This document shows, piece by piece, positions 166 through 59,621 of a DNA stretch of 64,000 nt. Source of the stretch: an uncultured Rhodocyclaceae bacterium (GTDB taxonomy: Bacteria; Pseudomonadota; Gammaproteobacteria; Burkholderiales; Rhodocyclaceae); assembly GCA_964596295.1 (NCBI GenBank), contig CAZQTB010000002.1, forward strand, positions 4,355-68,354. The letters are read 5' to 3'. The position numbers and the translations under genes were made by a program. The notes under the pieces were generated by a model. The model was not told the origin of the DNA and made no database searches. It saw only the letters and a program-made list of their open reading frames with translations. Every line of letters starts with the position of its first letter. Positions within the stretch are counted from its first letter, which is position 1.

Positions 166-780
166 CTACGTTTGAATCCGCCTCTGGACTGCCTCGCTTG
201 CCGAAAGCATCCGTTCAACATAGCGCGCAATGAGGTCGATTTCCAGATTCACCTGGCTGCCGACGCGCAGGTGGCGCAACGTGGTGGCCGCCATGGTGTG
301 GGGAATCAGGTTGATCGAAAAAACGATATCGGCAATCCGGTTGGTAGTCAGGGCGACCCCATCGACGGTGATCGAGCCTTTGGGCGCGATGTATTTCGCC
401 AGCGCTTGTGGCGCGCGTATCACCAGATCATGGGATTCGCCGACCGGCTCACATTTCACCACCTCGCCGATGCCATCGACATGGCCGGCCACCAGATGGC
501 CGCCGAGGCGGTCTGCCAGGCGCAGCGCCTTTTCGAGATTCACGTCATGGAGCCTGTCCAGGCCGACAGTGCAGTTCAGCGTCTCGCGCGAGACATCGAC
601 CTGATAGCTGCCACCTGTTTTACCGATCACCGTCAGGCACACGCCATTGTGGGCGATGGAGTCACCCACGCCGACATCATCCAGATACAGGGCGGGCGCA
701 GCGATTGTCAAGCGCATGCCATCGGCCAGCGAGGCGATCGCGGTGATGTTGCCGATGGCGGAAATGATGCCAGTGAACAT
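166..780 (-). CDS. ribE: Riboflavin synthase alpha chain
   Basis: MFTGII N-terminus, [31 protein letters not shown]; true start ATG at 780 inside ORF 166..1320. Confidence 0.95.
171..189 (+). repeat. Dispersed 19-bp repeat, copy in ribE 3' end
   Basis: TTTGAATCCGCCTCTGGAC; encodes VQRRIQ on the minus strand. Confidence 0.85.
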
Positions 781-800
781 GCGTGCCCCGGATATTCGTT

Positions 801-2603
801 TTAGCGCAGTGCGCGCTCGAGGGTGGGAAGAAACTGTTCTGCCGTCTGAAAGCCGACGACGCGCAGGCCGGGTTTTTCGCGGCCTTGCGCGTCGAAGAAG
901 ATGATGCCCGGCGGGCCGAACAGGCCGAAGCGCGCGAGCAGCGCGCGATCGGCTTCGTTGCTGGCGGTGACGTCCGCCTGCAGCAGCACGAATTCTTTCA
1001 GCCGCGCGGCCACGGCGGCGTCGGCAAAAGTGAAACGCTCCATTTCCTTGCAACTGATGCACCACTCGGCCCAGAAGTCGAGCATCACCGGCTTGCCCGC
1101 AGCGGCCTTGAGCCGCGCATCGAGTTCGGTCGCCGACTGGATGCGCTGGAAAGTCGGCGCTGGCGAAACGGCGGCTGCGGCCCCGCCGGTCGTTCCGGCG
1201 CTGCCGCGCAGGAAGCCCAGCGGCTGCAACGGGTCTTTCGCTCCGCCCAGCACGCCCAGCAGCATTGCCGCGCCACCCAGCAGCAGCACTACGCCGAGGC
1301 CCTTGCCCAAACGCTGCCAACCGTGCGCATGCGCCGGCAAGGGGTCAAGGGCGGAGAGATAGACCGCCGGCACAATCAGCAGCAGCGCCCAGCCCAGCAT
1401 CTGCGTCCACAGCGGCAACACGGGCGACACCAGCCACAGCGCGGTGGCGAGCATGACGACGCCAAAGAATTTCTTCACCCCTTCCATCCACGGCCCCGAT
1501 TTCGGCAGCAAGGAGCGCGAGAATGTGCCCACCAGCAACAGCGGCGCACCCATGCCCAGCGCCAGGGCAAACAGTGCTGCGCCGCCGAGCGACGCATCGC
1601 CCGTCTGCGCGATGTAGAGCAGCGCACCCGCCAGCGGCGCCGCCACGCAGGGCCCGACGATCAGCGCGGACAACGCGCCCATCAGCGCAATGGCCGACAG
1701 CGATCCGCCCTGCCGGTTGGCCGTCGCCGCCAGGCGGCTTTGCAGCGCGGCGGGTACCTGCAATTCGTAAAAACCGAACATCGCAAACGACAGCACGACA
1801 AAAATCAGCGCAAAACCGCCCAGCACCCAGGCGTTTTGCAAGGCGCCGGTAAGCAGGGCGCCCGAGAGTCCGGCCGCCACGCCAGCCACGGTATAGGTGA
1901 GCGCCATGCCCAGTACATAAGCCAGCGAGAGCACGAAAGCGCGCAGATGGCTTACCGCATGCCCGTGATTGACGATGATGCCGGAGAGAATCGGGATCAT
2001 CGGAAAGACGCACGGCGTGAAGGAAAGCAGGAGACCGAAGCCGAAGAAACTGAGCAGCGCCAGCGGCAGGTTGCCGCCTGTGAACAGGCCGGCGATACGC
2101 AAGCTTTCATCACCCGATGGCGCGCCGCCTGTCGCGGATGAGGCTGCGCCGGACGCTGCTGCGGGCAGCGTGAGCTGTGCCGCATACGTCTGCGGCGGAT
2201 AGCAGATTCCGCCATCCCAGCAGCCTTGCGCAACCGCCTGCAGCGTCACTGCGCCGCTGGCTTCCACGGGCAGGCGGATGCTGATTTCCTGGCGATAGGT
2301 TTCCACCGTGCCGAAGAGCTCGTCCTGCTTCATCCGGCCCGGCGGCAGTTGCGGTTCGCCGAGTTTGTCGACAGGTTTGCCGCCTGCGAGGCTAAACCTG
2401 AATTTGTCGCGATACATGTAATAGCCGTCGGCAATCTGCCAGTGCGCTTCCAGCGTTTGCGCATCAAGGACACGCGCCGAGAAACGAAACGCCTGCTCCG
2501 GCGGCAATGGTTCTCCGGGTACAGCTTCAAAAGCGGCGCGGGCCGGCCCGTTGACGGGCGGCAAAACAGCCAGAAAAAGCAGCAGCAGCGCGCGCATCAG
2601 CAT
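801..2603 (-). CDS. dsbD: Thiol:disulfide interchange protein DsbD
   Basis: QGC..GICYPP N-domain, FTPCVFPM and GPCVAAP membrane cysteines, WCISC thioredoxin domain. Confidence 0.95.
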   Translation of the reverse strand: MLMRALLLLFLAVLPPVNGPARAAFEAVPGEPLPPEQAFRFSARVLDAQTLEAHWQIADGYYMYRDKFRFSLAGGKPVDKLGEPQLPPGRMKQDELFGTVETYRQEISIRLPVEASGAVTLQAVAQGCWDGGICYPPQTYAAQLTLPAAASGAASSATGGAPSGDESLRIAGLFTGGNLPLALLSFFGFGLLLSFTPCVFPMIPILSGIIVNHGHAVSHLRAFVLSLAYVLGMALTYTVAGVAAGLSGALLTGALQNAWVLGGFALIFVVLSFAMFGFYELQVPAALQSRLAATANRQGGSLSAIALMGALSALIVGPCVAAPLAGALLYIAQTGDASLGGAALFALALGMGAPLLLVGTFSRSLLPKSGPWMEGVKKFFGVVMLATALWLVSPVLPLWTQMLGWALLLIVPAVYLSALDPLPAHAHGWQRLGKGLGVVLLLGGAAMLLGVLGGAKDPLQPLGFLRGSAGTTGGAAAAVSPAPTFQRIQSATELDARLKAAAGKPVMLDFWAEWCISCKEMERFTFADAAVAARLKEFVLLQADVTASNEADRALLARFGLFGPPGIIFFDAQGREKPGLRVVGFQTAEQFLPTLERALR

Positions 2604-2956
2604 GATTTGAATCCGTACCTGGACGTGTTCCCGGGGGTGGTTTCGCGATCGATCCAGGCCAGATAGTCCGGCAGGCCGTGCGTGACTGGGACAGCGATGA
2701 TTTCAGGAAGTTCGTACGGATGGCGGGCGCGTATCGCCGCCTCCAGTGCGGCATAACGCCCTGCCGTGGTCTTGATCGCCACGGGGACTTCGGTTGCCTG
2801 TTCAATTCCACCCTGCCAGCGATACACCGAGCGGCAGGGCGCAAGGATATTCACGCAGGCGGCCAGACGTTCGCCGACCAGGGCTGCGGCCAGCGTCTCG
2901 GCGCTTGCCCGGTCCGGCAGATGCGTCACGATGAGCAAGACTTGGCGGGTGTCCAT
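2597..2956 (-). CDS. cutA: Divalent-cation tolerance protein CutA
   Basis: LAACVN, SVYRWQG, HPYELPEI motifs; adjacent to dsbD. Confidence 0.95.
   Translation of the reverse strand: MDTRQVLLIVTHLPDRASAETLAAALVGERLAACVNILAPCRSVYRWQGGIEQATEVPVAIKTTAGRYAALEAAIRARHPYELPEIIAVPVTHGLPDYLAWIDRETTPGNTSRYGFKSC
2606..2624 (+). repeat. Dispersed 19-bp repeat, copy in cutA 3' end, just upstream of dsbD start
   Basis: TTTGAATCCGTACCTGGAC; encodes SRYGFK. Confidence 0.85.
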
Positions 2957-4809: not shown

Positions 4810-7800
4810 ATGAAACGCATCCGTAACGACAGCTGCGCCCAGCGCTCATCCGTCCGCCTCTCCACTCCATTGCGCCTGAGCGCCGCCGCAGTTGCCGCCT
4901 GCTTCATTACCGGGCAGGCTGTCGCCAACCCCACCGCGCCGACCGTGGTCAATGGCGCGGCCAGCTTCAACCAGGCGGGCAACGTGCTTACCGTCACCAA
5001 CAGCAACGGCGCAGTCATCAACTGGAACACCTTCTCCATTGCCGCCGGCGAAACCACCCACTTCGCCCAGACCTCGGCCTCGAGCCAGGTGCTCAACCGC
5101 GTGCTGGCCAACGACCCCTCGCTGATCTACGGCACCCTCTCCTCCAACGGCCGCGTCTGGCTGGTCAATCCTGCCGGCATCACGGTCGGTCCCAGCGGCC
5201 GCATCGACGTTGCCGGCTTTGTCGCCTCCACGCTCAACATCAGTAACGCCGACTTCCTCGCCGGACGCCTCAACTTCAACGCCACGCCCGGCGCGGGCAA
5301 TGTCGTCAATCAGGGCGAGATCACTACGCCGGCCGGCGGCAACGTCTATCTGATCGGCGCCAACGTCACCAATGAAGGCATTATCACCACGCCGCAGGGC
5401 GAAACCATCCTTGCCGCAGGGCAAACGGTCAGCCTGATCGACACGGCCACGCCCGGCGTCAAGGTTGATATCACGGGCGCGGAAGGCAATGTCACCAACC
5501 TCGGCGCCATCGTCGCCGATGCCGGGCGCATCGGCATCGCCGGCGTCATCGTCAGGAACAGCGGTGAACTCAATGCGAGCAGCGCTGTCAGCGAAGGCGG
5601 AAGAATTTTCCTCAAGGCCAGCCAGGATGCGTATGTCGATGGTGATGGCCGTATCATCACCACCGGCACCAAGGGCGGCAGTGTCGAAGTCCTCGGCAAT
5701 CGCGTTGCGGTGACGGACAACGCCGAGATCGATGCCAGTGGCCAAAATGGCGGCGGCACGATACTCGTCGGCGGCGATTATCAGGGCAAGAACCCCGCCA
5801 TTCAAAATGCCAGCGTCACGTACTTCGGCCCCAACGCCAGCCTGAAGGCGGACGCGCAAGAAGTCGGCGCTGGCGGCACGGTGATCGTCTGGGCCGACGA
5901 CACCACGCGCGCCTACGGCACCATCAGCGCACGCGGCGGGGCGAATGGCGGCAATGGTGGTTTCGTTGAAACCTCGGGGCATCGTTACCTGGCGGTCGAT
6001 GGCATCCATGTCGATACCCGCGCACCGCAGGGGACGACCGGCAACTGGCTGCTTGATCCGGACGAACTGACCATTCTGAATGGGTCTGGCACTGACATAG
6101 GCATTTATGGCGGCCCGATTTTTTCCACGATTTCCGCTTCCTCGACAATCTATGGCGCCGGAATTGAAACCGCACTAGGCGCAACCAATGTCACTCTGCA
6201 GACTAGCGCCTATGGCGGCGGCAACGGCAACATCACCGCCAGCGGCGTTACGATTAACAACGGCACGGCCGCGTATGGCCTGACCCTCGCCGCCTATGGC
6301 AGCGGCGGCGCCACGGGCAACATCAACATCACCAACAGCAACTTTTACGTGTATGGCGGCATGACGTTGCTGGCGGGCTGGGATGGCGCTGGTTTCACCA
6401 GTGCAGATGTGATTGGCGGCACAGGCGACATCACCATTTCCGGTTCGCAGATGCAGAGCTGGGGTGGTGCGATCGAGTTGTGGGCCGGCCACGATATCAA
6501 ACTATCTTATGGCGGCAGCGTCGGCACCGGGGTGCAAGGCGCCACGATGGATGTCTTCGCCGGACACGACTTGGCGCTCATCGGCGGCAGCAGCGTCAGC
6601 GGCACTTATGGCCCCAGCGTCGTACTCCAGAGCTGGGATACGCAAACCGTCTACGCCGGCAATGCCATTACGCTCACCGCCGGCAGCGCCAACAACACTT
6701 ACGGCGGCGTTTCCTTTTATGGCGGCTCGGTGGCTATTCAGGCCAATGGCGATCAGACTGTTTCCGCCGCTACCATCGAGCTCGTTGCGGGCACAGCGGG
6801 ACATGACAATACCGCGATCATCGAAGGCGGCGGGTCGATGCAGACTATTAACGTCACCACCCTGCTGGACGTGAAGGGCGGTGGCGGCGGCATCGACAAC
6901 TATGCGCATATCCATGCCACCGGTGCCTACGGAAGCCAGATCATCAACGCCGGTGGCGCGGCCATCATCCTGACCGGTGGCGCCAGCGGCGGCGCGCTGG
7001 ATCACGAAAACGGCGCCAACATCAATCTGGGCAGCAGCAACACCGGTGGCTCGCAAACCGTCTATGCCGACAGCATTACCACCTACGGCGGCGCGGCCAC
7101 CTATGGCGGGGCCGGATTTGGCAGTGAAAACGGAAACGACCAGTCGTTCTATGTCACCGGCGACCTGACGATGAACGGCGGCAGTTCGTCCAACAGCGAT
7201 TTTCGCGCCACGCCAGTCTGGATCGGCAGTGAGTATGGCGGCGGCATGATCAATGTGAATGTGGACGGCAATATCTTCCTCAACGGCGGTTCCACCTACG
7301 GCGGCGGCGTGCTGATCGGCGCTCTCAATGATGACACCTGCGGCGGCTTCGAGTGTCCTACCACTACGAACGTCATGCTTTCCGCCGGCAGGAGCATCAT
7401 CGCCACGGGCAACACCGGCGGCGTCTGGCTGGGGGTCAAGAACCTGACGGGCAGCAGTCTCAACGGCGTCACCCTGAACGCCGGCTCAATCGACAACTCC
7501 CCGAGCTTTTACGGCGGCAACATTGCGATGACCGGGCCGGGAGGCATCCAGACCGACAGCAGCGGCACGGTGGAAATGGTTGCCTACAGAAGCAGTTCGG
7601 AGGCCTACGGCGGCATTTCCTTGGGGTCCGGCACAACGATCTACGGGGGCGGCATCAGCCTCTATGCCGATAGCGATGTGAAGCTGAATGGCCGGGTGGA
7701 GGCAGTGAACAACCTGTATATCTATGCCGGGCTGGATAATTCCAGCGGGCCGGGCGATCAGTACTACAACAGTTTTTACGGCGGCAACATAGCGCTCGGC

Positions 7801-9851: not shown

Positions 9852-9870
9852 GCGTCTAGACCCTAGACGC
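9852..9870. terminator. Short hairpin between convergent genes, possible terminator
   Basis: GCGTCTAG-acc-CTAGACGC; no clear U-tract. Confidence 0.35.
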
Positions 9871-9920
9871 CCGGAGACGGACGGGTTCAACAACAGAGAT
9901 TCAAACCGTGCCCGCCGTGG

Positions 9921-10253: not shown

Positions 10254-11400
10254 GGGAGGAGGGGTGCAGCACGAGCCAGGGCAGGACGAGGTAAGGCCAC
10301 AACGCAGTCACGAAGTGGGTGAGGCCGTGAAAGTTGAGAAACTGGCCGGGGTTCCATGCGTGCAGCGCATTTTCCAGGTAGGGATTGACCGGTGCGAGGT
10401 TGACCAGCACGCTGGTCGCCAGCAAAGCCAGCGCAGCCAGCGCCCGCTGCAGGGCAGGCGGCAGGGCCAGGGCCGCCAGCCATAACCCACAGCCTGCGCC
10501 CAGCCCCGTCATGCTGCCGGGCGTGGCCCATGCGAATGCCGCCTGCGGCTGCATCATGAGGGCGAAGGCGAGGGTTTTTGCCGCCAGACCGAAGGTGAGG
10601 AGCAGGACGGGGAAAAGTGCCGCCTTCGGCGTCCAACCAATCAGGCTACGCAAGGACAACCATTGCCGGCTTGCGCCGGCGCGTTGCCGACGCTGGTTTG
10701 AATCCGTTTCTGGACGATGCGGCGCGATAAGGCTGGCCGCCAGCAGCGCAGCCAGCGCGCCGCTGGCGGCAATCAGGCTTTCCATGCGCTGGAAGCCCGC
10801 GGCGCTGAAGGCTTGCGTGGCAGGCAACGCGATCAGCCGGCGCAGGTCGCCGGCGCCGAACAGCAGCGTCGCCGGGTCGAGCTGGATCAGCAGCCACAAA
10901 CCCATCAGCACCAGACCCGTTTCGACGCTTTGCCCCTGATCCGGCCAGTGCGTGTGCCGCAGGTTGTCGATCAGCCGCCGCCCCCGGAATGCGCCGGGCA
11001 GTGCGCCGAGCAGCGCGCCCAGGGCGTTGCCGGCAAGGTCGAGATTGGATGCAACGCGGCTGGGCAGATAGTTCTGCGCCAACTCCATGAGAAAGCTCAA
11101 GGCGACTGCCGCGAGCACGGCCAGCCACCAGGCGTATGCCGCGGCCAGCCACTGGCGCAGGGCCGCCGCGAGGAAGAAACCCAAAGGCACGTAGGCGGCC
11201 AGATTGGTCAGCAGATCGAAGGCGGTGGTGTAGCGCGGCCAGCCGGCAAAAAGAAAGTCCAGCGCCGAAGCGCCGCTGCTGCGCCAAGTGGTGAGCGGGT
11301 AGAGGCTGGCATAGACGATCAGCAGCGCATAGCCGAGGCTGAGATACAACGCCAGGGGTGTGTGGGTGTGCGTGAATGGTCTAGTCACGAACTTTGTCAT
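10243..11400 (-). CDS. VanZ-family membrane protein
   Basis: YASLYP, NLAAYVPLGF, ELAQNYLPSRVAS..DL..N..G; many TM helices. Confidence 0.8.
   Translation of the reverse strand: MTKFVTRPFTHTHTPLALYLSLGYALLIVYASLYPLTTWRSSGASALDFLFAGWPRYTTAFDLLTNLAAYVPLGFFLAAALRQWLAAAYAWWLAVLAAVALSFLMELAQNYLPSRVASNLDLAGNALGALLGALPGAFRGRRLIDNLRHTHWPDQGQSVETGLVLMGLWLLIQLDPATLLFGAGDLRRLIALPATQAFSAAGFQRMESLIAASGALAALLAASLIAPHRPETDSNQRRQRAGASRQWLSLRSLIGWTPKAALFPVLLLTFGLAAKTLAFALMMQPQAAFAWATPGSMTGLGAGCGLWLAALALPPALQRALAALALLATSVLVNLAPVNPYLENALHAWNPGQFLNFHGLTHFVTALWPYLVLPWLVLHPSSHAR
10689..10716 (+). repeat. Dispersed repeat, extended copy inside VanZ-family gene
   Basis: GACGCTGG-TTTGAATCCGTTTCTGGAC-G; encodes RPETDSNQR in a polar loop. 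Confidence 0.9.
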
Positions 11401-16287: not shown

Positions 16288-16908
16288 ATGAAAAAAGACA
16301 ACATCGCCTTTGCATCCGCTTCCGGACAACGTCCATCGCGCAGGAACAGCAACGGCGGCACGCTGCTGGGCATGTTTATCGGCCTGGTCACCGGTCTGGT
16401 CATTGCGTTTGCCGTGGTCTGGTATCTCAACAAGACGCCATTGCCTTTCCAGGACAGGGCCGCAGATGAGCCGCATGTTGCCAACAGCCAGGGAGCGGCG
16501 ACCCCTGCGCCCTTGCCGGGCAAGCCCGGCGACAAGCCGCGCTTCGAGTTTTATGGCATTCTCGAAGGCAAGCAGCAGGCGACGCCGGGCGCTGCCTCCG
16601 GCGCACCTTCGGCGGCGCCCGCTGTTACGGTCACGTCGCCGTCCGAAGTCAAACCCGTCGATGTATTCTTTCTTCAGGTGGGCGCTTTCCAGAAAACCCA
16701 GGACGTCGACAAGCTGAAGGCCAAGCTGGCGCTCATGGGCCTTGAAGCCAGCGTGCAGGAAATCAGCGTTGCCGACAAGGGCGTGATGCAGCGTGTGCGC
16801 GTCGGCCCTTTCCGCAGCCCCGAAGAAATGAATCGCGCCCGCACAGCGCTGGCGCAGGGCGGGGTGCAGACCACGGTGGTCAAACAGAAGGAACCGCCCG
16901 CCCAATGA
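16288..16908 (+). CDS. SPOR-domain cell division protein (FtsN-like)
   Basis: Single N-terminal TM, FEFYGIL, Pro/Ala linker, LQVGAF..RVRVGPF SPOR domain; argS-SPOR-dsbA order. Confidence 0.88.
   Translation: MKKDNIAFASASGQRPSRRNSNGGTLLGMFIGLVTGLVIAFAVVWYLNKTPLPFQDRAADEPHVANSQGAATPAPLPGKPGDKPRFEFYGILEGKQQATPGAASGAPSAAPAVTVTSPSEVKPVDVFFLQVGAFQKTQDVDKLKAKLALMGLEASVQEISVADKGVMQRVRVGPFRSPEEMNRARTALAQGGVQTTVVKQKEPPAQ
16309..16327 (+). repeat. Dispersed 19-bp repeat, degenerate copy in SPOR gene N-terminus
   Basis: TTTGCATCCGCTTCCGGAC (3 differences from consensus); encodes FASASG. Confidence 0.6.
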
Positions 16909-17562: not shown

Positions 17563-18324
17563 GTGCGCGTTTTTATTACCGGCGCATCCAGCGGCATCGG
17601 CGAGGCGCTGGCCCGCCACTACGCGGCCACGGGTGCTGTGCTGGGCTTGGCGGCGCGTCGCCAGCGCCGACTTTCCGCGCTGGCCGCCAGCCTGCCCGGC
17701 GAGCATGCCTGCTATCCCATTGATGTGGCCGACAGCGCCGCCCTCGATGCGGCGGCCGCCGATTTCATCACGCGTTTCGGCTGCCCCGATATCGTGATCG
17801 CCAATGCCGGCATCTCGGTTGGCACCCTGACCGGCGAGGTCGAAGACCTGCCTGCCTTTCGCCGCGTTTTCGAAACCAATGTGCTGGGCATGGCGCATAC
17901 CTTCGCCCCTTTCATCCGGGCCATGCAGGCGCGCGGCAACGGGCGGCTGGCCGGCATCGCCTCGGTGGCAGGCATTCGCGGTCTGCCCGGCGCGGGCGCC
18001 TATTCCGCCTCGAAAGCCGCTGTCATCGCTTATCTCGAAGCGTTGCGGGTCGAGTTGCGCGGCAGCGGTATCAGGGTTGTCACCCTGGCCCCCGGCTACA
18101 TCGCCACCCCGATGACGGCAAACAATCCCTATCCGATGCCCTTTCTGCTGCCGGCGGACAAAGCCGCGCGGCGCTTTGCCCGCGCCATCGCACGCGGCGC
18201 CAGCTACACCGTGATTCCCTGGCCGATGGGCGTGGTGGCCAAGGTGTTGCGGTTGTTGCCCAATCCGCTGTTCGACTGGCTCTTCGCCCGTGCTGCGCGC
18301 AAGCCGCGCGGCCTGGATCTGTAA
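17563..18324 (+). CDS. Short-chain dehydrogenase/reductase
   Basis: TGASSGIG, NAG, YSASK. Confidence 0.92.
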   Translation: MRVFITGASSGIGEALARHYAATGAVLGLAARRQRRLSALAASLPGEHACYPIDVADSAALDAAAADFITRFGCPDIVIANAGISVGTLTGEVEDLPAFRRVFETNVLGMAHTFAPFIRAMQARGNGRLAGIASVAGIRGLPGAGAYSASKAAVIAYLEALRVELRGSGIRVVTLAPGYIATPMTANNPYPMPFLLPADKAARRFARAIARGASYTVIPWPMGVVAKVLRLLPNPLFDWLFARAARKPRGLDL

Positions 18325-19122: not shown

Positions 19123-19131
19123 ATCGGCACC

Positions 19132-19158
19132 GTCCGGAACCGGATTCAAACCAGCGCC
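19132..19158 (-). repeat. Dispersed repeat, extended intergenic copy
   Basis: Reverse complement GGCGCTGG-TTTGAATCCGGTTCCGGAC; partial inverted partner GGTTGAATCGG at 19117-19127. Confidence 0.85.
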
Positions 19159-19171
19159 GAAATTTACGCTG

Positions 19172-26151: not shown

Positions 26152-26750
26152 TGTGGAAGATACTCAGACGGATTGCCAGAACCGGCATCGCGACGGAAGC
26201 GCCGCCAAAAGTCGGCGCTGGTGAAGCGCCTGCGCTACAAGGCGGGCGAGCAAAAAACGCTCGCCTCGCCGTAGCGGATGGCGACACGGCGACGGCGCAG
26301 CATATCCACGACGAGATTCTGCAAATCCTCGGCCGCGCGCTGACCATCCGCGAAGTGGACGCCGGCAGCTGCAATGGTTGCGAACTGGAGATCCATGCCA
26401 CCGGCAACGTTTACTACAACCTTGAAGGCCTGGGTATCAGGTTCGTCGCCAGCCCGCGGCATGCCGATATGCTGCTGGTCACCGGGCCGGTATCGCGCAA
26501 CATGGCGCTGGCGTTGCAGCGTACCTACGACGCCACGCCCGAGCCCAAGCTGGTCGTTGCTGTCGGCGATTGCGCCGCGAATGGCGGCATCTTCGGCGAG
26601 AGTTATGCCACGCTCGGCGGAGTGGCCAAGGTATTGCCCGTTGATCTTGTGATTCCCGGCTGCCCGCCCGAACCGATTGAAATTCTGCGAGGCATCCTGA
26701 CGGCGGTGCGCTATCGACTGAAGTTGCGTTCCGTCACCGGCCATAAATAA
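26151..26750 (+). CDS. HyfI/HycG-like (NuoB family) Fe-S small subunit
   Basis: GSCNGCELE, SPRHAD.LLVTG, VGDCA, PGCPP. Confidence 0.92.
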   Translation: MWKILRRIARTGIATEAPPKVGAGEAPALQGGRAKNARLAVADGDTATAQHIHDEILQILGRALTIREVDAGSCNGCELEIHATGNVYYNLEGLGIRFVASPRHADMLLVTGPVSRNMALALQRTYDATPEPKLVVAVGDCAANGGIFGESYATLGGVAKVLPVDLVIPGCPPEPIEILRGILTAVRYRLKLRSVTGHK

Positions 26751-26756
26751 AGCAGC

Positions 26757-26775
26757 ATCCAGAGACGAATTCAAG
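26757..26775 (-). repeat. Dispersed 19-bp repeat, intergenic copy between convergent genes
   Basis: Reverse complement CTTGAATTCGTCTCTGGAT. Confidence 0.75.
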
Positions 26776-36691: not shown

Positions 36692-37603
36692 ATGGCTCTC
36701 CCCAGTAAAGTCCGCATTATTGAAGTTGGCCCGCGCGACGGATTGCAAAACGAAAAGCAGGCGGTTGCCACTGCCACCAAGGTTGAGCTGATTCACCGCC
36801 TGGCGGCGGCAGGCTTGCAATCCATCGAGGTGACCGCCTTCGTCTCGCCCAAGTGGGTGCCGCAGATGGCGGATGGCGCCAAAGTTTTTGCGGCCGTCAA
36901 AAAACTGCCCAAGGTCGCCTATCCCGTGCTGACGCCGAACATGAAGGGCTTCGAAGCCGCCCTGGCGGCCGGGGCGAAAGAGGTCAGCGTGTTTAGCGCC
37001 GCTTCCGAAACCTTTTCGCAGAAGAACACCAATTGCTCCATCGGCGAATCGCTGGAGCGCTTTCGTCCGGTGATTGAAGCGGCCAAGGCCGCGGACATCA
37101 AGGTGCGCGGCTATGTCTCCTGCGTTCTCGGTTGCCCCTACGAGGGCGACGTGGCGCCGCGCGCCGTTGCCGACGTGGCGCAAGCCCTGTTCGAGATGGG
37201 CTGCTATGAAATCAGCCTGGGCGACACCATCGGCACCGGCACGCCGGAAAAGACGAAGGCGATGATCGAGGCCGTGGCGCGCCGCGTGCCGCTCAAAAAA
37301 CTTGCCGGCCATTTCCATGATACCTGGGGCATGGCCATCGCCAATATCTATGCTTCGCTGCAGGCAGGCATTGCGGTTTTCGACAGTTCCGTTGCCGGCC
37401 TGGGCGGCTGCCCATATGCGCCCGGCGCCCTGGGCAATGTCGCCACCGAAGATGTGGTCTGGCTGTTGCAGGGCTGCGGCATTAATTGCGGCGCCAATCT
37501 TGAGTCACTGGTCGATACCGCTGCGTGGATTTCCCGCGAACTTGGCCGCGAGCCTGCCTCGCGTGTCGCGCGCGCCATGCTCGCGCGGCGTGCCGTGGCC
37601 TGA
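36692..37603 (+). CDS. liuE: Hydroxymethylglutaryl-CoA lyase
   Basis: EVGPRDGLQNE, GHFHDT, GLGGCPYA. Confidence 0.95.
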   Translation: MALPSKVRIIEVGPRDGLQNEKQAVATATKVELIHRLAAAGLQSIEVTAFVSPKWVPQMADGAKVFAAVKKLPKVAYPVLTPNMKGFEAALAAGAKEVSVFSAASETFSQKNTNCSIGESLERFRPVIEAAKAADIKVRGYVSCVLGCPYEGDVAPRAVADVAQALFEMGCYEISLGDTIGTGTPEKTKAMIEAVARRVPLKKLAGHFHDTWGMAIANIYASLQAGIAVFDSSVAGLGGCPYAPGALGNVATEDVVWLLQGCGINCGANLESLVDTAAWISRELGREPASRVARAMLARRAVA

Positions 37604-37618
37604 AAACCCGGCGCTGGC

Positions 37619-37825
37619 ATGACGGCGATTACTTCACCCTGCGTGAATGTTTGCCGCATGCAGGGCAGCCTGTGCGTCGGCTGCTACCGTACACTGGACG
37701 AAATCGCCGGCTGGAGCCAGATGGGCGACGCTGAAAAGCAGCGCGTGCTCTGCGCCGCGGCGCAACGCGCCGGAACCGGCGGTGCGGCCGTTGCGGGGCA
37801 GAACGCAGCAAGCCAAAAAAAGTAG
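37619..37825 (+). CDS. DUF1289-family small Cys-rich protein
   Basis: SPCVNVC...CVGCYRTLDEI..W. Confidence 0.85.
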   Translation: MTAITSPCVNVCRMQGSLCVGCYRTLDEIAGWSQMGDAEKQRVLCAAAQRAGTGGAAVAGQNAASQKK

Positions 37826-40498: not shown

Positions 40499-41579
40499 CC
40501 TCTTCGATAATGCGCCTGACCGGCGCCGGCAGCGCGGCGGCATGCAGCGCATCGAAGGCGAGCCAGCGCAAACCCGGTTCCATGGCGCCGGGGCGGATCT
40601 TCACGCGGCAGAGCAGTGGCGTGATATGCAGGCGAAAATGGCTGAAGGCATGCACAAAAGTCTTGAGTTCGTCGCTGGACGGCGCTGGTTTGAATCCGTG
40701 TCTGGACGAGACGGCGATCAGGGTGGCGCCGAAGGCTTTTGCGACATGCGCGGCGGCATCCCCGCCCGCCGGCAATTCCGGCAGCGAGAGCAGACCGCCC
40801 CAGATGCCGACGGGCGGGCGGGTTTCCAGCAGCACGCGATCGCCATGCAATACAACCAGCAGCGTGGCATGGCGTTCGGGAATCGTCCGCCGCGGTTTGC
40901 GTTGCGGCAACTCCGCCGTGCGGCCGCTGGCGCGCGCCACGCAGAGGCCGGCCAGCGGGCAGGCGGCGCACTGCGGCCGGCTGCGCGTGCACAGGGTGGC
41001 GCCGAGATCCATCTGCGCCTGGATGTAGGTGGCCACGTTGCGTCGCGGCAACAGTTCCGCGGCGTGTTGCCAGAGCCGACTTTCCAGCGCCGCCGTACCC
41101 GGCGCGCCTTCGATGCCGAACGCGCGGCAGAGTATGCGTTTGACATTGCCATCCAGAATCGGCGCGCGCGCGCCGAAGCAGGCGACCGCGATGGCGTTTG
41201 CGGTGGAACGGCCGATGCCGGGCAAGCGCGCAATGGCTTCCGGCGTCTGCGGAAACAGGCCGCCATGCAGCGTCATCACGGTCCGTGCCGCAGCATGCAG
41301 ATTGCGCGCGCGCGCGTAGTATCCCAGACCGCTCCATAGCGACATGATCTCCTCGACCGGCGCGGCGGCCAGCCGGGCAAGCGTGGGGAAGCGGGCAAGG
41401 AAGCGCCGATAGTAGGGAATAACCGTCGCCACCTGCGTCTGCTGCAACATGATTTCCGCAAGCCAGACGCGGTAGGGGTCGCGCGTGTTCTGCCAGGGCA
41501 GGTCATGCCGGCCGTGATGCGCGTGCCAGCGGATGAGCAGGGCGGAAAAGTCTTTTGCCACGGAAAATTTGTTGCGCAA
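40443..41579 (-). CDS. mutY: A/G-specific adenine glycosylase
   Basis: EIMLQQTQV, WSGLGYYARARN, LPGIG.STA, DGNV, C-x6-C-x2-C-x5-C Fe-S motif. Confidence 0.96.
   Translation of the reverse strand: MRNKFSVAKDFSALLIRWHAHHGRHDLPWQNTRDPYRVWLAEIMLQQTQVATVIPYYRRFLARFPTLARLAAAPVEEIMSLWSGLGYYARARNLHAAARTVMTLHGGLFPQTPEAIARLPGIGRSTANAIAVACFGARAPILDGNVKRILCRAFGIEGAPGTAALESRLWQHAAELLPRRNVATYIQAQMDLGATLCTRSRPQCAACPLAGLCVARASGRTAELPQRKPRRTIPERHATLLVVLHGDRVLLETRPPVGIWGGLLSLPELPAGGDAAAHVAKAFGATLIAVSSRHGFKPAPSSDELKTFVHAFSHFRLHITPLLCRVKIRPGAMEPGLRWLAFDALHAAALPAPVRRIIEEVSAREAAQRPAGGRQPAR
40662..40707 (+). repeat. Dispersed repeat, tandem pair with 27-bp period inside mutY
   Basis: CTTGAGTTCGTCGCTGGAC-GGCGCTGG-TTTGAATCCGTGTCTGGAC; encodes SRHGFKPAPSSDELK. 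Confidence 0.88.
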
Positions 41580-46163: not shown

Positions 46164-46688
46164 CTAGTCAAAATAACTGCGCGCTTCCTCGAACCGCGCG
46201 GCGAACCAGCCGCTGGCCAGGCTGTCGATTCTTACCTTGCCCCGGCTATTCGGCGCATGGATGAAGCGCCCCTCGCCAATGTAGATGCCGACATGGGAGT
46301 GCGGCCGGTTACCGGTGTTGAAAAACACCAGGTCGCCGGGTTGCATCTGCGCCATGTCCACCGCGCGGCCCAGCCGCGCGAGATCGGCGGCCGAGCCTTG
46401 CAGCCTGAGGCTGACCGCCTGGTCAAAAACGTAGCTGACCATGCCGCTGCAGTCGAGCCCGGCCTCCGGATTTTTGCCGCCAAAACGGTAGCCGGTATTG
46501 ATCAGCCCAAGCGAAAACAGCACCACTTCGCTGGCTTTTTCGCGCGCGGAAAGTGAATTCGCCGTTCCGTCAGAGCCGATTTTTGTTATCGGCGCGCTGC
46601 CGCACGCAACCATCAGCAGCGCCGAAACAAGCAGCAGGGCAAGGCATGTGAGTCGGGGCAGACGCATCGATTCAGCATACTTTGCCAT
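46164..46688 (-). CDS. NlpC/P60 (C40 peptidase) lipoprotein
   Basis: Lipobox MVAC, Y.FGG, DCSG, HVGIY, FIHA; alternative start 46667. Confidence 0.9.
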   Translation of the reverse strand: MAKYAESMRLPRLTCLALLLVSALLMVACGSAPITKIGSDGTANSLSAREKASEVVLFSLGLINTGYRFGGKNPEAGLDCSGMVSYVFDQAVSLRLQGSAADLARLGRAVDMAQMQPGDLVFFNTGNRPHSHVGIYIGEGRFIHAPNSRGKVRIDSLASGWFAARFEEARSYFD

Positions 46689-46776: not shown

Positions 46777-47949
46777 CTACCGGCTGTAGTGTGTCATGCT
46801 GACCAGCAGGCGCACCAGCATATACGCGGTGTTATTGAACAGCCGCAGCAGCCACGAGCGTTGCCCCTGATCGTCGCGATGAATTTCGAGAGCATCCTGG
46901 CGGATTGCCGCGCGAAGGTGTGCGCCAAGCTCTGCGGCAAACTGCGTATCGCGGACAACGACATTGGCTTCGCGCGACAGCAAGAGGCTGAACGGATCGA
47001 TGTTTGACGAGCCAACCGTGGCCCATGCGCCGTCGATTACCGCTACCTTGGCATGCAGGAAGGCAGGCTGGTATTCGAAAATGCGCACGTTGGCAGCCAG
47101 CAGGCGGTCATAGAGGGATTGCGTGGCATGATGCTGGAACGCATATTCCACGCGGCCTTGCAGTAGTAATGTGACATGTACCCCGCGCTGGGCGGCGGCC
47201 AGCAGTGCCTCGCGGAAGCGCCGACCTGGTAGGAAATAAGCATTGGCAAGCATGATTTCCTGTTGGGCATTGGTTATGGCGTCCAGATAAGCGTCCTCAA
47301 TATCACGCCGGTGGCGCAGGTTGTCGCGAATGAGGAAGGCGGCCTGAACAGCGCCTGCCGGCTCCTGCCGGGGTGGCAGAAAATCCGGCTCGCGGACGCG
47401 ATGGCCTAGGCGTGACCAGCTGACCAGATGCCACAGATGACGTACAGCAGCATGAATTCTGGCTACTAGCGGGCCTTCGACGCTCACGGCATAATCGAAA
47501 CGCGGCGCGGTGGCTTGTTCGTTGTCAAAATCGTGAATGACATTGATGCCGCCAACAAAAGCCGTGCGGCCATCAATCACGGCCAGCTTGCGGTGTAAGC
47601 GGCGCAAACGATGACGGCGTATTCGCAGAGAAGGAATTTCCGGACGATAAGTCAGCAGCTTGGCGCCATCGGCCGCCAGCGCCCTTCCCAGGCCAGCGGC
47701 AAATTCGCGTGCGCCAAAACCGTCTATCAGTACGCGTACCGTGACACCGCGCCGTGCTGCCCGGCTTAGCGCCGCAGCGACGCTGCGGCCGGTGGCGTCG
47801 TCGGCAAAAATATAAGTTTCCAGGTGCACTTCATGCGCTGCGCCATCAATCGCTGCGATCAATGCCGGAAAATACGCCACGCCGGCCACCAGTAGTTGCA
47901 GCCTGTTGCCGGATGAAAAGTCTTGAGTCCGTTTCTGGGCGGCGCTCAT
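46777..47949 (-). CDS. clsB: Cardiolipin synthase B
   Basis: Two HKD motifs (HRKLAVID, HAKVAVID), no N-terminal TM; preceded by a YbhP-like gene. Confidence 0.9.
   Translation of the reverse strand: MSAAQKRTQDFSSGNRLQLLVAGVAYFPALIAAIDGAAHEVHLETYIFADDATGRSVAAALSRAARRGVTVRVLIDGFGAREFAAGLGRALAADGAKLLTYRPEIPSLRIRRHRLRRLHRKLAVIDGRTAFVGGINVIHDFDNEQATAPRFDYAVSVEGPLVARIHAAVRHLWHLVSWSRLGHRVREPDFLPPRQEPAGAVQAAFLIRDNLRHRRDIEDAYLDAITNAQQEIMLANAYFLPGRRFREALLAAAQRGVHVTLLLQGRVEYAFQHHATQSLYDRLLAANVRIFEYQPAFLHAKVAVIDGAWATVGSSNIDPFSLLLSREANVVVRDTQFAAELGAHLRAAIRQDALEIHRDDQGQRSWLLRLFNNTAYMLVRLLVSMTHYSR
47922..47940 (+). repeat. Dispersed repeat, variant copy in clsB N-terminus
   Basis: CTTGAGTCCGTTTCTGGGC; shares flank AAAAGTCTTGAGT with the first mutY copy. 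Confidence 0.7.
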
Positions 47950-48716
47950 GGGACGGCGATATTCAGCGTGGCAGAAAGCGCCGCGTGATCTGAAATGGCT
48001 GACCATGGCGGGCCGGCGTGCAGATGCGCGGCCGTGATCGTCAACCCGCGCTGGTAAATGCGGTCGAGCCGGAACAGCGGCAGCGCAGCGGGGTAGCTGC
48101 GCGACGGGCGTGCACCTTCGCGCCGGCCCGCTATGGCGAATATCTCGTCCAGCCCCAGCCGCTGCGCCAGCAGTTTGCCGGCACGATTGCGCCAGTCATT
48201 GAAGTCTCCGGCAATCAGGAGCGGCGCATCCGCCGGCGCCATGACTTCGATGTAAGCGGCAAGCGCATCAAGCTGCCGGCGCCGCGAGCGCGCAAAAAGC
48301 GACAGATGCACGCACACGCAATGCAGCGGCCGGTCAAGCTGCGGCAACTTGATGGCGCAATGCAGCAGGCCGCGCCGTTCGAAACGCAGATGCGTTACGT
48401 CCTGATTGTGCTGATGCAGGATGGGAAAGCGCGAAAGGATTGCATTGCCGTGATGTCCGTGGTCATACACCATGTTCTGGCCATAGGCGCTGCTGTGCCA
48501 CACGTCGGCGGCGAGAAACTCATGCTGTGGCGCAGATGGCCACTGCGCGTGCTGCTCGGCGTGTTTCAGATGCAATCCCTGCACCTCTTGCAGAAACACG
48601 ATATCGGCGCCCAGCGCACGCAGGCGCTCACGCAGCTCATGCACCATCATGCGGCGATTGAACTGGGAAAAGCCTTTGTGGATATTCCAGGTGACAACTG
48701 AAAACGGTTGCGTCAC
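47946..48716 (-). CDS. Endonuclease/exonuclease/phosphatase family protein (YbhP-like)
   Basis: TWNIHKG, LQEV, GNAILS, GDFNDW, LDRIY, SDH. Confidence 0.9.
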   Translation of the reverse strand: MTQPFSVVTWNIHKGFSQFNRRMMVHELRERLRALGADIVFLQEVQGLHLKHAEQHAQWPSAPQHEFLAADVWHSSAYGQNMVYDHGHHGNAILSRFPILHQHNQDVTHLRFERRGLLHCAIKLPQLDRPLHCVCVHLSLFARSRRRQLDALAAYIEVMAPADAPLLIAGDFNDWRNRAGKLLAQRLGLDEIFAIAGRREGARPSRSYPAALPLFRLDRIYQRGLTITAAHLHAGPPWSAISDHAALSATLNIAVP

Positions 48717-57031: not shown

Positions 57032-57856
57032 ATGACACGAGGCATCTCGGTTGACACTGCTGCCCTCGTTGCGGCCTTGGGCATGGCATCGCGTCGCTTC
57101 GACATCGATATGCTGCCTCGTTGCGCTTCGACCAACGCGGTGATGCTGGCGCGTGCCGAGGCTGGCGCTCCTTCGGGCACGGTCGTCGTGGCCGAGGAAC
57201 AAACTGCCGGACGCGGGCGGCGCGGGCGAAGCTGGATTGCGGCGCCTGGCGACAGCCTCACGTTTTCCCTGCTCTGGCGATTTGCTCCAGCCACTGTGCC
57301 GGCCGGCCTTTCGCTGGCGACGGGCGTGGCGGTGGCCCGTGCGCTGGAAAAAATTATGCGCAGCGGTATCCAGCAGGATGGCACTGGCAGTACGGCGCTC
57401 AAGTGGCCGAACGATATCCTGCTCCAGGGCAAAAAGCTGGGTGGCATCCTGATCGAACTCGTACCCGGCGCACCCCATGCGGCAGTCATTGGCATCGGCA
57501 TCAACCGGCGCTTGCCCGCGGCACTGCCGCCCGATGTGCGTGCGGCATCCGCCGCTCTGGAGGACGTGATTGACAATACCGTTGACAACAGCGCGCTGCT
57601 CGCGGCGCTGCTGACCGAACTGCTGGCGGTGCTGGAGAGTTTTGCCGTTGCCGGCTTCGGCGCGCTGCGTCCGGACTGGCTGGCGCGCCATGCATTCCAG
57701 GATGCGCCTGTCGTGCTGTTGTCCGATTTTGCGCCGCCGCAACATGGAATCTGCCGCGGTGTCGATAACGACGGCGCACTGCTGCTGGAGGTCGCCGGCC
57801 GCATCGAACGCGTCCTCTCCGGCGAAATTTCCCTGCGGGCGGCTGACACCGGATAG
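57032..57856 (+). CDS. birA: Biotin--[acetyl-CoA-carboxylase] ligase without DNA-binding domain
   Basis: STN, AEEQTAGRGRRGR.W, KWPND, KLGGILIE, GIGIN. Confidence 0.93.
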   Translation: MTRGISVDTAALVAALGMASRRFDIDMLPRCASTNAVMLARAEAGAPSGTVVVAEEQTAGRGRRGRSWIAAPGDSLTFSLLWRFAPATVPAGLSLATGVAVARALEKIMRSGIQQDGTGSTALKWPNDILLQGKKLGGILIELVPGAPHAAVIGIGINRRLPAALPPDVRAASAALEDVIDNTVDNSALLAALLTELLAVLESFAVAGFGALRPDWLARHAFQDAPVVLLSDFAPPQHGICRGVDNDGALLLEVAGRIERVLSGEISLRAADTG

Positions 57857-57915
57857 TACGGGTTTAAGATAGCGTCCGATCCCACGTTACGTACCATTAC
57901 GCGGCAAACCGATAC

Positions 57916-58752
57916 ATGGCAACTTACGCAATCGGCGATGTGCAGGGCTGTTTTGATCCCCTGCGCCAGCTTCTTGACTCCCTCCATTTCGACCCGGCCA
58001 GCGACCGCCTCTGGTTCGTCGGCGATCTCGTCAATCGCGGGCCGCAGTCGCTTGACGTGCTGCGCTACGTCAAGTCGCTGGACACGGCTGCGGTGGTCGT
58101 GCTCGGCAATCACGACCTGCACCTGGTGATGCAGGCCGAAGGCTATGGGCGTGCCGCCAAGGAAGACACCCTGGACGCCGTGCTCGCTGCGCCCGATCGC
58201 GATGAACTGCTGGCGTGGCTGCGCGCACAACCGCTGTTCCATATGGTCGGCCCATGGGCGATGGTGCACGCAGGGCTCTTGCCGGAGTGGACGGCGGCGC
58301 AGGCAAACGCCTTGTCGGATGAAGTTTCTGCTGCGCTGACGGCGAGCAACTATCGCGAGTTTCTGGCGCACATGTGGGGTTCGGAGCCCGCCGCCTGGCG
58401 CGATGATCTTACAGGTTGGGACAGGCTACGCGTAGTGGTGAATGCCATGACGCGCATGCGTTACGTGACGGCTGCCGGTGCGATGGAGTTGCGCGCGCCC
58501 GGAGCCAAAGCCCCGCCTGAGCAAGGGCCGGCGGGATGTGTGCCATGGTTCGCTGCGCCCGCGCGGGCGAGCGCCGGCCATCTTGTCATCTGCGGGCACT
58601 GGTCGGCGCTGGGCTACCGCGAGCAGCCGAATTTGCTGGCGATCGACACCGGTTGCCTGTGGGGCGGCGCGCTTACGGCAGTGCGGCTGGAAGACCGGCG
58701 GGTGTTTCGCCAGCCGTGTCCGCAACAGGCAAAGCCTGCAGGCTGGGATTGA
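57916..58752 (+). CDS. apaH: Symmetrical bis(5'-nucleosyl)-tetraphosphatase
   Basis: [37 protein letters not shown]. Confidence 0.95.
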
Positions 58753-59593
58753 CAGTCTTCTGCATCAGCCGGTGCGCGACGGCGTGGTGTGCATGCGCTG
58801 CGAGGTGGCGGCGATCAACGCCGGCGGATGCAAGCGCGGGCAAGGGCTCAAGCTGCGCGATGAGCCCTCCGCTGGCGGCAATCGACCACAGGCATGCGAT
58901 GAGCGTCATTTCGCCCACGTAGTCGGCGGCATGGCTGGGCTGATGGCTGTGCGCATCGACATAGCGCAAAACCAGGGGTATCACGGGCGCCGCCGCATCG
59001 ACCGCGCTTTGCAACAAGGCGCTGTGAAAAGGCTGCACTCCGTGGCCATCGCTGGTGGTACCTTCGGGAAATATCGCGACCAGCCGCCCCGCGCGCAACT
59101 GGCCGACCAGGTGATCGCGCGCGGCATGCGCCGCACGGCGCGAGCCGCGCTCCAGAAAAATCGTTTCGGTACGCTGGCTCAGCCAGCCGATCAAAGGCCA
59201 GTTGCGCACGTCGTCCTTGGCCACAAAAGCCGCAGGCGTCCAGGCGTTGATGACAAAAATGTCGAGGAACGAGATGTGGTTGGCAACCAGCATGCCCGCG
59301 GGCGGAGCTGCCATTGCCTCGCTCGCCGTCCCGCTGGAGGACTTTCCAGAAACGGATTCAAAACTTCGCGGCGTCTCGCCAGCGCCGACTTTTAGTGCCA
59401 CACACAATATGTTGAGGAGCTGCCGCGACCAGCGCTGTTTGAGCGCCAGGCGTTTGTTTTGCGGGACGCAGGGATAGATCAGCGCAACGGTCAGCATGCC
59501 GCCTGCCAGATGCAGGGCAGTGCGGCTTAAGCGGAATGTTGCGCGTAACCCGCAGCGTAAATTGCCGGCAAGTTGTGCCAACGGCGTTGCCAT
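58673..59593 (-). CDS. Lysophospholipid acyltransferase (PlsC family)
   Basis: NHISFLD, FVAK, FLER, FPEGT. Confidence 0.9.
59344..59362 (-). repeat. Dispersed 19-bp repeat inside PlsC-family gene
   Basis: Reverse complement TTTGAATCCGTTTCTGGAA; encodes FESVSG in a low-complexity loop. Confidence 0.85.
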
Positions 59594-59602
59594 CCGTCAA
59601 TG

Positions 59603-59621
59603 TTTGAATCCGTCTCTGGAC
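59603..59621 (+). repeat. Dispersed 19-bp repeat, intergenic consensus copy
   Basis: TTTGAATCCGTCTCTGGAC, enclosed by a 12-bp inverted repeat. Confidence 0.9.

Follow-up and report, generated by a model that had tools for sequence, protein, structure and literature searches.

A precise 18-bp in-frame insertion unit and a conserved, evenly spaced 24-bp motif in a Rhodocyclaceae genome

The closest known case to the one described here is that of the cyanobacterial SDR elements inserted in HIP1. These elements are reportedly 21-27 nt long, nested and of a shared fold; to our knowledge, no mechanism for SDR-type elements has become known since 2008. Nested insertions within a DNA uptake sequence (DUS or USS) are also not known to have been described. 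Published descriptions cover SDR1-8, the small dispersed repeats of Nostocaceae, with SDR5 inserted in HIP1 (Elhai et al. 2008, doi 10.1101/gr.074336.107, as cited in PMC4390886, PMC5861425 and PMC3116915), and HIP1 has been proposed as an uptake watermark (PMC13756078). Established uptake sequences are, as stated in PMC2817400, known from only two proteobacterial families: the DUS of Neisseriaceae and the USS of Pasteurellaceae.

Here we analyse a stretch of 64,000 nucleotides (the window) from an uncultured Rhodocyclaceae bacterium. It contains an 18-bp unit, B, with the consensus YTTGARTCCGTNTCTGGA, and a non-palindromic 24-bp motif, A (AAAAGTCGGCGCTGGYRRNACGSC), which is much commoner than B across the genome. 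Unit B is one member of a family of 18-27-bp hairpin units that includes C (24 bp), D (21 bp), E (27 bp) and others. A literature search found no published account of either B or A. The sites in the window are listed below, where G011 is a sister genome.

171..188, +, B at a non-A site, read as VQRRIQ, in the riboflavin synthase gene (166-780, -) at its 3' end; absent from G011, leaving a clean 18-bp gap
1149..1171, +, intact A, matrix score 35
2606..2623, +, B at a non-A site, cutA 3' end, shortly before dsbD starts; empty in G011 (clean 18-bp gap)
5859..5881, +, intact A, matrix score 31
9855..9905, -, apparent decayed B-in-B nest, intergenic, from sequence reading only, no empty allele seen
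10688..10724, +, degenerate A with B (10697-10714) at bond 15/16, VanZ-like gene; intact A and 18-bp gap in G011
16309..16326, +, B variant right after the SPOR gene start, read as FASASG, matrix score 25; empty allele not alignable
17653..17675, -, intact A, matrix score 30
19123..19165, -, A holding B (19133-19150) at bond 15/16, between genes; G011 has another nest of units here
26207..26289, +, A interrupted at bond 12/13 by a composite unit of 60 bp (26219-26278) that lengthens the product of the hydrogenase small-subunit gene by 20 aa; intact A and 20-aa gap in G011
26758..26775, -, B variant, intergenic, matrix score 26
32227..32249, +, intact A, matrix score 36, conserved in G011
35596..35618, +, intact A, matrix score 34, conserved in G011
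37603..37625, +, A variant, matrix score 28, conserved in G011
40656..40716, +, mutY A site with B1 (40662-40679, bond 6/7) and B2 (40689-40706, bond 15/16), from ortholog alignment
41062..41084, -, A variant in mutY, matrix score 29
46562..46584, -, A variant, matrix score 26
47916..47956, +, degenerate A with B1 (47922-47939), clsB 5' end; also in G011 and G007, empty A in G005
57349..57394, +, degenerate A carrying at bond 6/7 a C unit of 24 bp (57355-57378) with a GNA triloop; the host gene (57143-57856) is BirA-like by our reading; the G011 orthologue reads KVGAGDT, an intact A
59324..59393, -, plsC A site with a 45-bp nest (59328-59372) of E (27 bp) enclosing B (59345-59362), adding 15 aa; G011 lacks exactly these 45 bp and 15 aa
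59603..59620, +, B between genes, a short way upstream of where plsC starts (59593, -); present in G011 too, there with another 18-bp unit nested within it
61703..61725, +, intact A, matrix score 35

A preliminary description had listed eleven copies of a dispersed 19-mer, and the repeat is real. Allowing up to three mismatches, the 19-mer has ten matches in the window (171, 2606, 10697, 16309, 40689, 47922 and 59603 on the plus strand; 19132, 26757 and 59344 on the minus strand), against a mean of 0.02 and a maximum of 1 in 100 shuffles. The remaining copy, at 40662, has more than three mismatches, yet it reaches 20 bits with a matrix trained on the genome. The true unit is 18 bp, the final C of the 19-mer belonging to the target, and what was taken for a 27-bp form consists of B and 9 bp of motif A. 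The remnant suspected at about 9871-9907 reads on the minus strand as the probable decayed nest listed above.

Genome-wide (2.06 Mb) there are 24 exact 18-mers, compared with 0 in each of five synonymous-codon shuffles, and 89 copies that score at least 20 bits, compared with 0-6 in codon shuffles. Of these 89, 47 lie in genes and 40 are intergenic by our own gene calls, the latter number being somewhat inflated because the gene caller overlooks some genes, such as plsC. The coding copies use several reading frames, five of the six (16, 13, 9, 5 and 4 copies) and not only the four seen in the window; the sixth is the frame in which B reads TGA. A placement at gene termini, also suggested earlier, does not hold for the genome, where no more than 16 of the 47 copies in genes are 60 nt or less from a gene end. 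There are two close pairs of B, both direct, and copy number varies from 0 to 47 across species of one genus. The host genes in the window match the Pfam families Lum_binding, CutA1, VanZ, SPOR, HhH-GPD/NUDIX_4, PLDc and Acyltransferase, in agreement with the names RibE, CutA, VanZ, SPOR, MutY, ClsB and PlsC-like first given to them.

The B sites of the genome that holds the window (G000) were compared with the 1.2 Mb of G011's 2.9 Mb that was covered, and 29 of the 89 are alignable there. By our own tally, nine show one clean 18-bp gap, four an exact composite gap (36, 42, 42 and 45 bp), four an A site without B and four B in both genomes, while eight are ambiguous. No target duplication is found at the insertion gaps in this comparison. 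B is a precise in-frame insertion that adds a peptide to host proteins, which bears out the earlier suggestion of a miniature selfish element; the riboflavin synthase, cutA, VanZ-like and plsC sites are all empty in G011. Because five of the clean gaps fall outside intact A, insertion of B requires no homology, and clean insertions without A homology are seen at 171, 2606, C23:18803 and C2:112647.

Excision of B in silico regenerates an A site for 20 of the 89 copies, against 7 of 3000 random windows, and a further 19 copies sit within another unit. The units nest in one another, B in either orientation and also in B itself, and their lengths are multiples of three, so that whole codons are added. 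Units C, D, E, F and G each keep to a set bond of A, among 6/7, 12/13, 15/16 and 21/22. C and D use an identical A bond in three genera; they are seen in genera g1, g2 and g74 and not among g3, g11, g37 and g64. When ten genomes are aligned at the mutY A site, A is intact in G008, eight further genomes carry other units and G027 is without A.

The stem of B covaries at pairs 1-6 (93 of 116 copies, 57 expected) and 7-18 (90 of 116, 55 expected), each with 0 of 2000 shuffles, these statistics counting copies and not independent events. Pairs 10-15, 11-14 and 12-13 show no or weak covariation in the same 116 copies. The stem of B is short and has no GNA triloop; the loop of unit C is GNA in 39 of 42 pattern matches, with most of the stem fixed by the pattern itself.

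Motif A is an old and conserved motif, regularly spaced and restricted to a single Rhodocyclaceae clade. The 2064-kb genome has 333 matrix sites (9-19 in shuffles) and 144 perfect 12-mers, and up to 640 of the latter are found in 3.7 Mb (G014). Strands are balanced (170 plus, 163 minus), also on one replichore (89 plus, 73 minus), which rejects a polar motif of the KOPS or Chi type. Spacing is near 5.8 kb with a coefficient of variation of 0.69 against 0.99 (0 of 2000 simulations). Synonymous identity is 219/283 inside A and 5681/10969 outside, and at 3 of 77 A sites substitutions are the sole difference from G011. Accessory DNA accounts for three stretches of 75-123 kb without A, in one genome (1.2 of 2.9 Mb). 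As to an origin of A by substitution and not insertion, the pattern in DUS and USS, seven A sites can be aligned to an A-free genome, two gap-free and five with gaps of unequal length.

This is the profile of a DNA uptake sequence, and A is likely a new, putative uptake signal. As described for DUS and USS in PMC2817400, it is non-palindromic, occurs in both orientations, is spaced more regularly than by chance, is depleted in coding DNA and strongly biased in frame there, is missing from accessory genes, is retained at orthologous positions and is clade-restricted. It differs in having its own sequence, in a density about tenfold below Neisseria/Haemophilus cores (about 0.8 perfect cores per kb), and in the absence of inverted terminator pairs, a DUS/USS feature: none of the 333 sites form inverted pairs within 40 bp. 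ComEC is intact in the genome and also present in A-poor genomes. Among the profiled pilins none is specific to the clade: the PF16732 pilin occurs in A-rich and likewise in A-poor or A-free genomes, and the FimT-like pilin is not conserved across the A-rich genera.

B is a non-coding 18-bp insertion unit that has been placed precisely and without target duplication at dozens of sites. We consider it rather probable that it moves as a single-stranded DNA hairpin and that its favoured target A is an uptake sequence. A candidate break-and-join enzyme (HUH-like or similar) would act on B in trans. The host-maintained A may be a hot spot because a protein binds or opens the DNA there.

The units resemble SDR elements in being tiny and precisely inserted, in using a set bond of a host motif that is over-represented, in lacking a known transposase, in nesting in their own copies (reportedly so for SDR), and in a secondary structure with compensatory changes, counted for B in copies and not independent events. 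C, D and E fall within the length range reported for SDR; B, at 18, is shorter. In plasmid NC_010631, HIP1 is split by a GCGNAGC-bearing insert in 10 matches (control 0), mostly 15-19-nt double hairpins similar to unit C, the triloop being part of the search pattern. However, our unit sequences are unlike these Nostoc inserts, B also hits IS5 genes, and the host is of Rhodocyclaceae type, not Nostocaceae. A itself is like HIP1 in being selected, genome-wide, in several frames and host to tiny insertions, but it is asymmetric, 24 bp long and entered at several bonds, whereas HIP1 is an 8-bp methylated palindrome.

Rickettsia palindromic elements also add peptides in frame to unrelated proteins, but RPE-1 is about 150 bp, while the present units measure 18-27 bp and target a motif of the host. 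REP, REPIN and BIME repeats with RAYT are likewise short hairpins, some in-frame in genes and in mosaic composites (PMC3733652). We reject this identity for B: the units lack the GTAG tag, or the unpaired CGTC with an 8-9-bp stem, of the repeats described there, are not in extragenic doublets, have more than half of their copies in genes and flank no RAYT.

Three IS5 transposases, 59-76% identical, carry 2-3 B each at many bonds, one of which is occupied in all three; B peptides occur in 2 of 120 close homologues. In G001 both B copies lie within one IS5 remnant. The ends of the B-bearing IS5 do not match B, and with clean gaps lacking duplication a MITE is rejected. In G000, the most B-rich genome, profile searches recovered no Y1_Tnp (RAYT), IS110, RVT_1 or IS5 match; the assembly is 96% complete, so the enzyme gene may lie in the missing part. 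The RAYT/IS200-type transposase suggested earlier did not emerge: RAYT-like genes in four of five relatives are flanked by their own palindromes and not by these units, and G003 has such a gene and no B.

More tentatively, A could be a third, independently evolved uptake watermark, in at least seven Rhodocyclaceae genera, parasitised by gene-less 18-27-nt DNA hairpins. These would travel between genera on A-tagged DNA and be joined at bonds opened by the uptake or recombination machinery. A putative host-encoded joining activity would also put B into transposase genes and yield more than a third of medium-sized internal protein indels between sister species.

A possible, if doubtful, alternative leaves B an insertion unit and makes A the site of a chromosome-organising or replication-associated protein, which would stall forks or nick the DNA where the units insert. 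The even spacing, long consensus, low density, missing terminator pairs and lack of a clade-specific pilin are consistent with this, and HIP1 is argued to shape chromosome structure (PMC5861425). Even spacing is however also a DUS/USS trait (PMC2817400), and the lack of replichore polarity, with plus-strand sites spread round the entire G011 chromosome, and the large A-free islands argue against it.

Movement via RNA, by reverse splicing or reverse transcription, has been proposed for cyanobacterial SDR elements and is unlikely here. G-T pairs in the stem of B (positions 10-15, 83 of 116 copies), insertion without duplication and reverse transcriptase genes in three of five genomes searched would agree with it, but RVT_1 has no match in either of the B-rich genomes G000 and G011, and B lies both ways round at one bond and on both strands of genes. 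The GNA triloops also favour DNA, as GCGNAGC mini-hairpins are reported to be much more stable in the DNA form than in the RNA form (PMC13037366).

It is equally hard to credit that units arose rarely and spread among A sites without a dedicated catalyst, by gene conversion or transformation on A's short homology, helped by hairpins that escape mismatch repair. The confinement of C and D to one A bond and the failure to find an enzyme point that way, as does their patchy distribution, an outcome expected of horizontal transfer between cells that bear A. Against it stand the clean B insertions without A homology and the many bonds used in IS5 genes; further, a locus-specific A variant is retained beside the unit at 47922, which argues against co-conversion. 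Such a process could nevertheless help C and D to spread. That B itself is a selected uptake or recognition signal, the first option of the preliminary description, is very improbable in spite of nucleotide-level conservation in five frames and the four sites shared with G011, because B inserts (the empty alleles largely refute a signal), nests in itself, varies from none to dozens of copies within a genus and sits in transposase genes, as in the G001 remnant; the uptake idea fits the neighbouring A, first noticed only as a "GRCGCTGG extension".

If A is a third uptake-sequence case, the origin of such sequences becomes open to a comparative test, and if the parasitised watermark is real, HIP1/SDR would join it under a general rule that uptake watermarks breed micro-parasites. 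With several units, exact target bonds and empty alleles defined, there is a ready substrate for an enzyme hunt, and an activity that joins short DNA into a chosen bond precisely and without a scar would be technically interesting. The units alter host proteins as well: among 115 internal indels of 5-16 aa between orthologues of G000 and G011, 44 contain an A or unit motif, compared with 69 of 1872 control windows.

The dispersed repeat of the preliminary description is real: the window has 10 matches to its 19-mer at up to three mismatches, where 100 shuffles give 0.02 on average, and the eleventh copy named there (40662) is recovered with a matrix trained on the genome. In the whole genome (G000; 2.06 Mb, 60.6% GC, with the window on contig C2) the exact 18-mer occurs 24 times, against none in five codon shuffles, and the matrix finds 89 copies, against 0-6. 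The unit, here called B, is 18 bp long (YTTGARTCCGTNTCTGGA) and not 19, as the C that follows is a base of the target. The 5' extension GRCGCTGG exists as described, but it is the middle of a second motif, A, and not a part of the repeat. An Rfam search and a tRNA scan of the window gave no match. Within the species, the indels listed for contigs of 4 runs against window positions 40001-60000 are all of one base; as contigs drop rare variants, this has no bearing on current activity.

To study insertion we used a sister genome, G011, to the fetched part of which 29 of the 89 B sites could be aligned. At nine of these, including 171, 2606 and 10697 in the window, G011 has a single clean 18-bp gap, and at four more the gap is composite and exact, with a length of 36-45 bp. 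Of the remaining sites, G011 has A but no B at four and shares B at another four, and eight are ambiguous. No target duplication was seen at the 29 sites. For B, neither a crossover of the integron type (G^TT) nor a TCAA end as in IS200/IS605 could be upheld, since the empty alleles and the right flanks other than C fix the unit as YTTGA...GGA. The earlier suggestion that the element adds peptide to host proteins agrees with these clean gaps and with the orthologues: compared with G011, the window's PlsC is 15 residues longer and its hydrogenase small subunit 20 residues longer, both from unit insertion. Among internal indels of 5-16 residues between orthologues, 44 of 115 contain an A or unit motif, compared with 69 of 1872 control windows. 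The small subunit belongs to a six-gene membrane-bound hydrogenase-4/Ehr-like operon (window 19500-26750, + strand).

When B is taken out, an A site is re-formed at 20 of the 89 copies, compared with 7 of 3000 random windows. Another 19 copies lie inside another unit, 8 near a half A site and 42 elsewhere, the last usually 5' of a C followed by a purine. B is an 18-bp insertion unit aimed at A, in a family resembling the small dispersed repeats (SDR) of cyanobacteria. Many of the copies outside A in G000 are found within a few bases of CAT or ATG, i.e. often near start codons. The 24-bp motif A, with consensus AAAAGTCGGCGCTGGYRRNACGSC, is also split by other units.

Units that split motif A, by the bond that is split
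After base 6: B (named B1 here, 18 bp), C (24 bp, TATGCGNAGCGGTATCCNNNNGGA) or D (21 bp)
After base 12: a composite of 42-60 bp
After base 15: B (named B2 here)
After base 21: E (27 bp)

Units also enter each other: B is found inside B at two bonds, one of them hit in both orientations, as well as inside C and E. At the mutY site (40656-40716) one relative has an intact A and eight others have different units. Among 18 genomes, C and D occur at their shared bond in three genera (g1, g2 and g74), and the matches listed contain no units in four others (g3, g11, g37 and g64). At one mismatch or less, 12 of 41 genomes contain 2 to 47 copies of B each, and these 12 belong without exception to the genus of the window; the exact composite of motifs occurs in two public genomes only, titled Sulfurisoma sp. 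and Rugosibacter sp.

Insertion is precise, at fixed bonds, nested and frame-preserving, and the stems of the units covary. For B, 116 copies from two genomes were scored, counted as copies and not as independent events. Bases 1 and 6 pair in 93 of them, where 57 would be expected, and bases 7 and 18 in 90, against an expectation of 55; three further position pairs showed no clear covariation in this set. The loop of C is GNA in 39 of 42 pattern matches, and the loops of D and E are of the GAA type. Target duplication by E was rejected, as the covariation of its 3' end is with the stem of the unit and not with the flank. According to the available part of PMC13037366, GNA-type mini-hairpins are far more stable as DNA than as RNA, from which we infer a single-stranded DNA intermediate. 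The unit would then move as a hairpin of single-stranded DNA, and a break-and-join enzyme acting in trans would insert it; we favour this route over its two alternatives and give it about an even chance. Movement through RNA is improbable; the original SDR study, with nested units of 21-27 nt, reportedly used an RNA model. Spread by pure gene conversion between A sites is equally improbable, and it cannot explain the clean B insertions at sites without A.

The RAYT/IS200-type transposase that had been proposed as a partner did not emerge: Y1_Tnp has no match in G000, and in the relatives (four of five positive) the RAYT-like genes are not flanked by units. Two such genes (L068 and L069) have short flanking inverted repeats of their own, unrelated to the units. 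Nor does G000 contain a match to IS110 (one of five genomes searched is positive), to the IS5 query or to RVT_1, the last absent also from G011 and found in three of the five genomes searched. A weak motif screen of the predicted proteome returned two tyrosine-recombinase motifs and no Cas1 motif.

Several copies of B are carried by transposase genes. In three IS5 transposases from three genomes, 59-76% identical, B is present in frame two or three times per gene, with one bond occupied in every case.

Copies of B that lie in IS5 DNA, by genome
G001: 2 of 2
G010: 4 of 9
G005: 4 of 10 (9 examined)
G006: 2 of 8 (5 examined)
G009: 0 of 7 examined

Two 98%-identical IS5 copies in G010 share three B units but differ in their flanks, so the element moved after the B insertions. 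B peptides occur in 2 of 120 close IS5 homologues, one being the query's own cluster. Five homologues from other sources (P0063, P0084, P0114, P0108 and P0079) have unrelated inserts of 8-26 residues at or beside the B bonds, which suggests that other micro-elements use the same bonds. Relaxed selection and hitch-hiking may account for part of the recurrence of B in IS5. Among plasmids, a piece of IS5 that bears B had six weak matches, none covering 80%. Of 62 metagenome matches to B, seven lie within IS5 DNA, six have identical flanks and represent a single IS110 locus, counted once, and several in unrelated proteins (e.g. L424, L428, L432, L433 and L451) are probably due to chance. One IS110 locus carries two B units; in the IS110/IS1111-type element at L406:1002-1419, B stands just before the recombinase SSGG motif and in the 3' non-coding region, and this element appears, from its sequence, to sit in an attC-like site.

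The most over-represented words of G000 belong to A. At 22 bits or more there are 333 sites, against 9-19 in shuffles, with 170 on the plus and 163 on the minus strand; our own gene calls place 236 within genes and 84 between them, with 13 straddling. They are spaced more evenly than by chance, with a CV of 0.69 compared with 0.99, an evenness reached in none of 2000 simulations. On 1.2 Mb of the closed genome G011, with positive GC skew throughout, the split is 89 plus to 73 minus, which shows that A lacks the polarity of KOPS or Chi. A is conserved at the nucleotide level: G000 and G011 agree at 219 of 283 four-fold third positions inside A, compared with 5681 of 10969 outside. An orthologue in G011 is available for 77 of the coding A sites, and A is kept at 60 of these; at 11 of the other 17 the A of G011 is, by manual reading, split by an inserted unit. 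G011 has three gaps without A, of 75-123 kb, where orthologues cover 2-8% compared with 65% elsewhere.

Accessory islands without A in G011
C1:60428-142292
C1:532785-607705
C1:942895-1066137

Absence of A could act as an island detector in the clade that bears it. Five phage-like viral records (G698-G702), picked because each had an A match, contain 20 sites in about 260 kb, 2-6 each, with none in the control; this is roughly half the host density, while the genomic islands of the host lack A.

At least 49 copies of a 14-mer of A are present in 27 of 301 genomes of the family, from seven genera, and every other genome has at most 16. Outside the family, among 401 genomes of the order, a 21-mer of A never exceeds four copies per genome. 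In a fast tree of a single gene (gyrB, 30 genomes), the 14 A-rich genomes form a clade with two A-poor ones (SH-aLRT 92.3). One of these, G054, has seven good A sites in 280 kb, a lower density. Loss of competence was rejected as the cause of A-poor relatives, as ComEC is intact in five of five and G054 still has sparse A. The commonest 12-mer in those 280 kb (L355-L368) is the palindrome CTTCTATAGAAG. One-strand clusters of the 14-mer in two other A-poor genomes (G065:C1:1602368-1605626 and G134:C1:1461275-1502253) are likely KVGAG repeats of large adhesins or transferred DNA.

As to its role, we favour A as a DNA uptake sequence, a reading that we judge about as probable as all others together; a chromosome-protein site is possible but clearly less probable. 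A has most of the traits of DUS/USS listed in the available part of PMC2817400, but it is sparser and lacks terminator pairs, with no two of the 333 sites within 40 bp. No receptor stood out: ComEC and the PF16732 pilin occur in A-poor genomes as well, and a FimT-like pilin varies among the A-rich genera. A short type IV pilin of 60 residues is encoded at G000:C4:12895-13077, beside ABC-transporter and glycosylation-like genes.

The closest known case is that of SDR and their host motif HIP1, which works alike, although the present system is no member by host or target. SDR5 interrupts HIP1 after its third base (available parts of PMC4390886 and PMC5861425), and HIP1 itself has now been put forward as a watermark for uptake (PMC13756078, in the part available). 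By the definition in the available parts of PMC3733652 and PMC3116915, the units fall outside REP/RAYT systems. No description of A or B was found in the main texts of the open-access papers searched; A is an apparently undescribed, clade-wide motif that likely serves DNA uptake. On the Nostoc plasmid NC_010631.1, 10 matches to HIP1 are split by inserts with GCGNAGC, most built like C. Among the split sites are double-hairpin inserts of 15-19 nt (e.g. 163329-163351), shorter than the 21-27 nt reported for SDR. Within the window, a two-partner secretion pair is found at 3130-9147 (+ strand), with a ShlB/FhaC-type transporter and a TPS-domain protein of 1445 residues.
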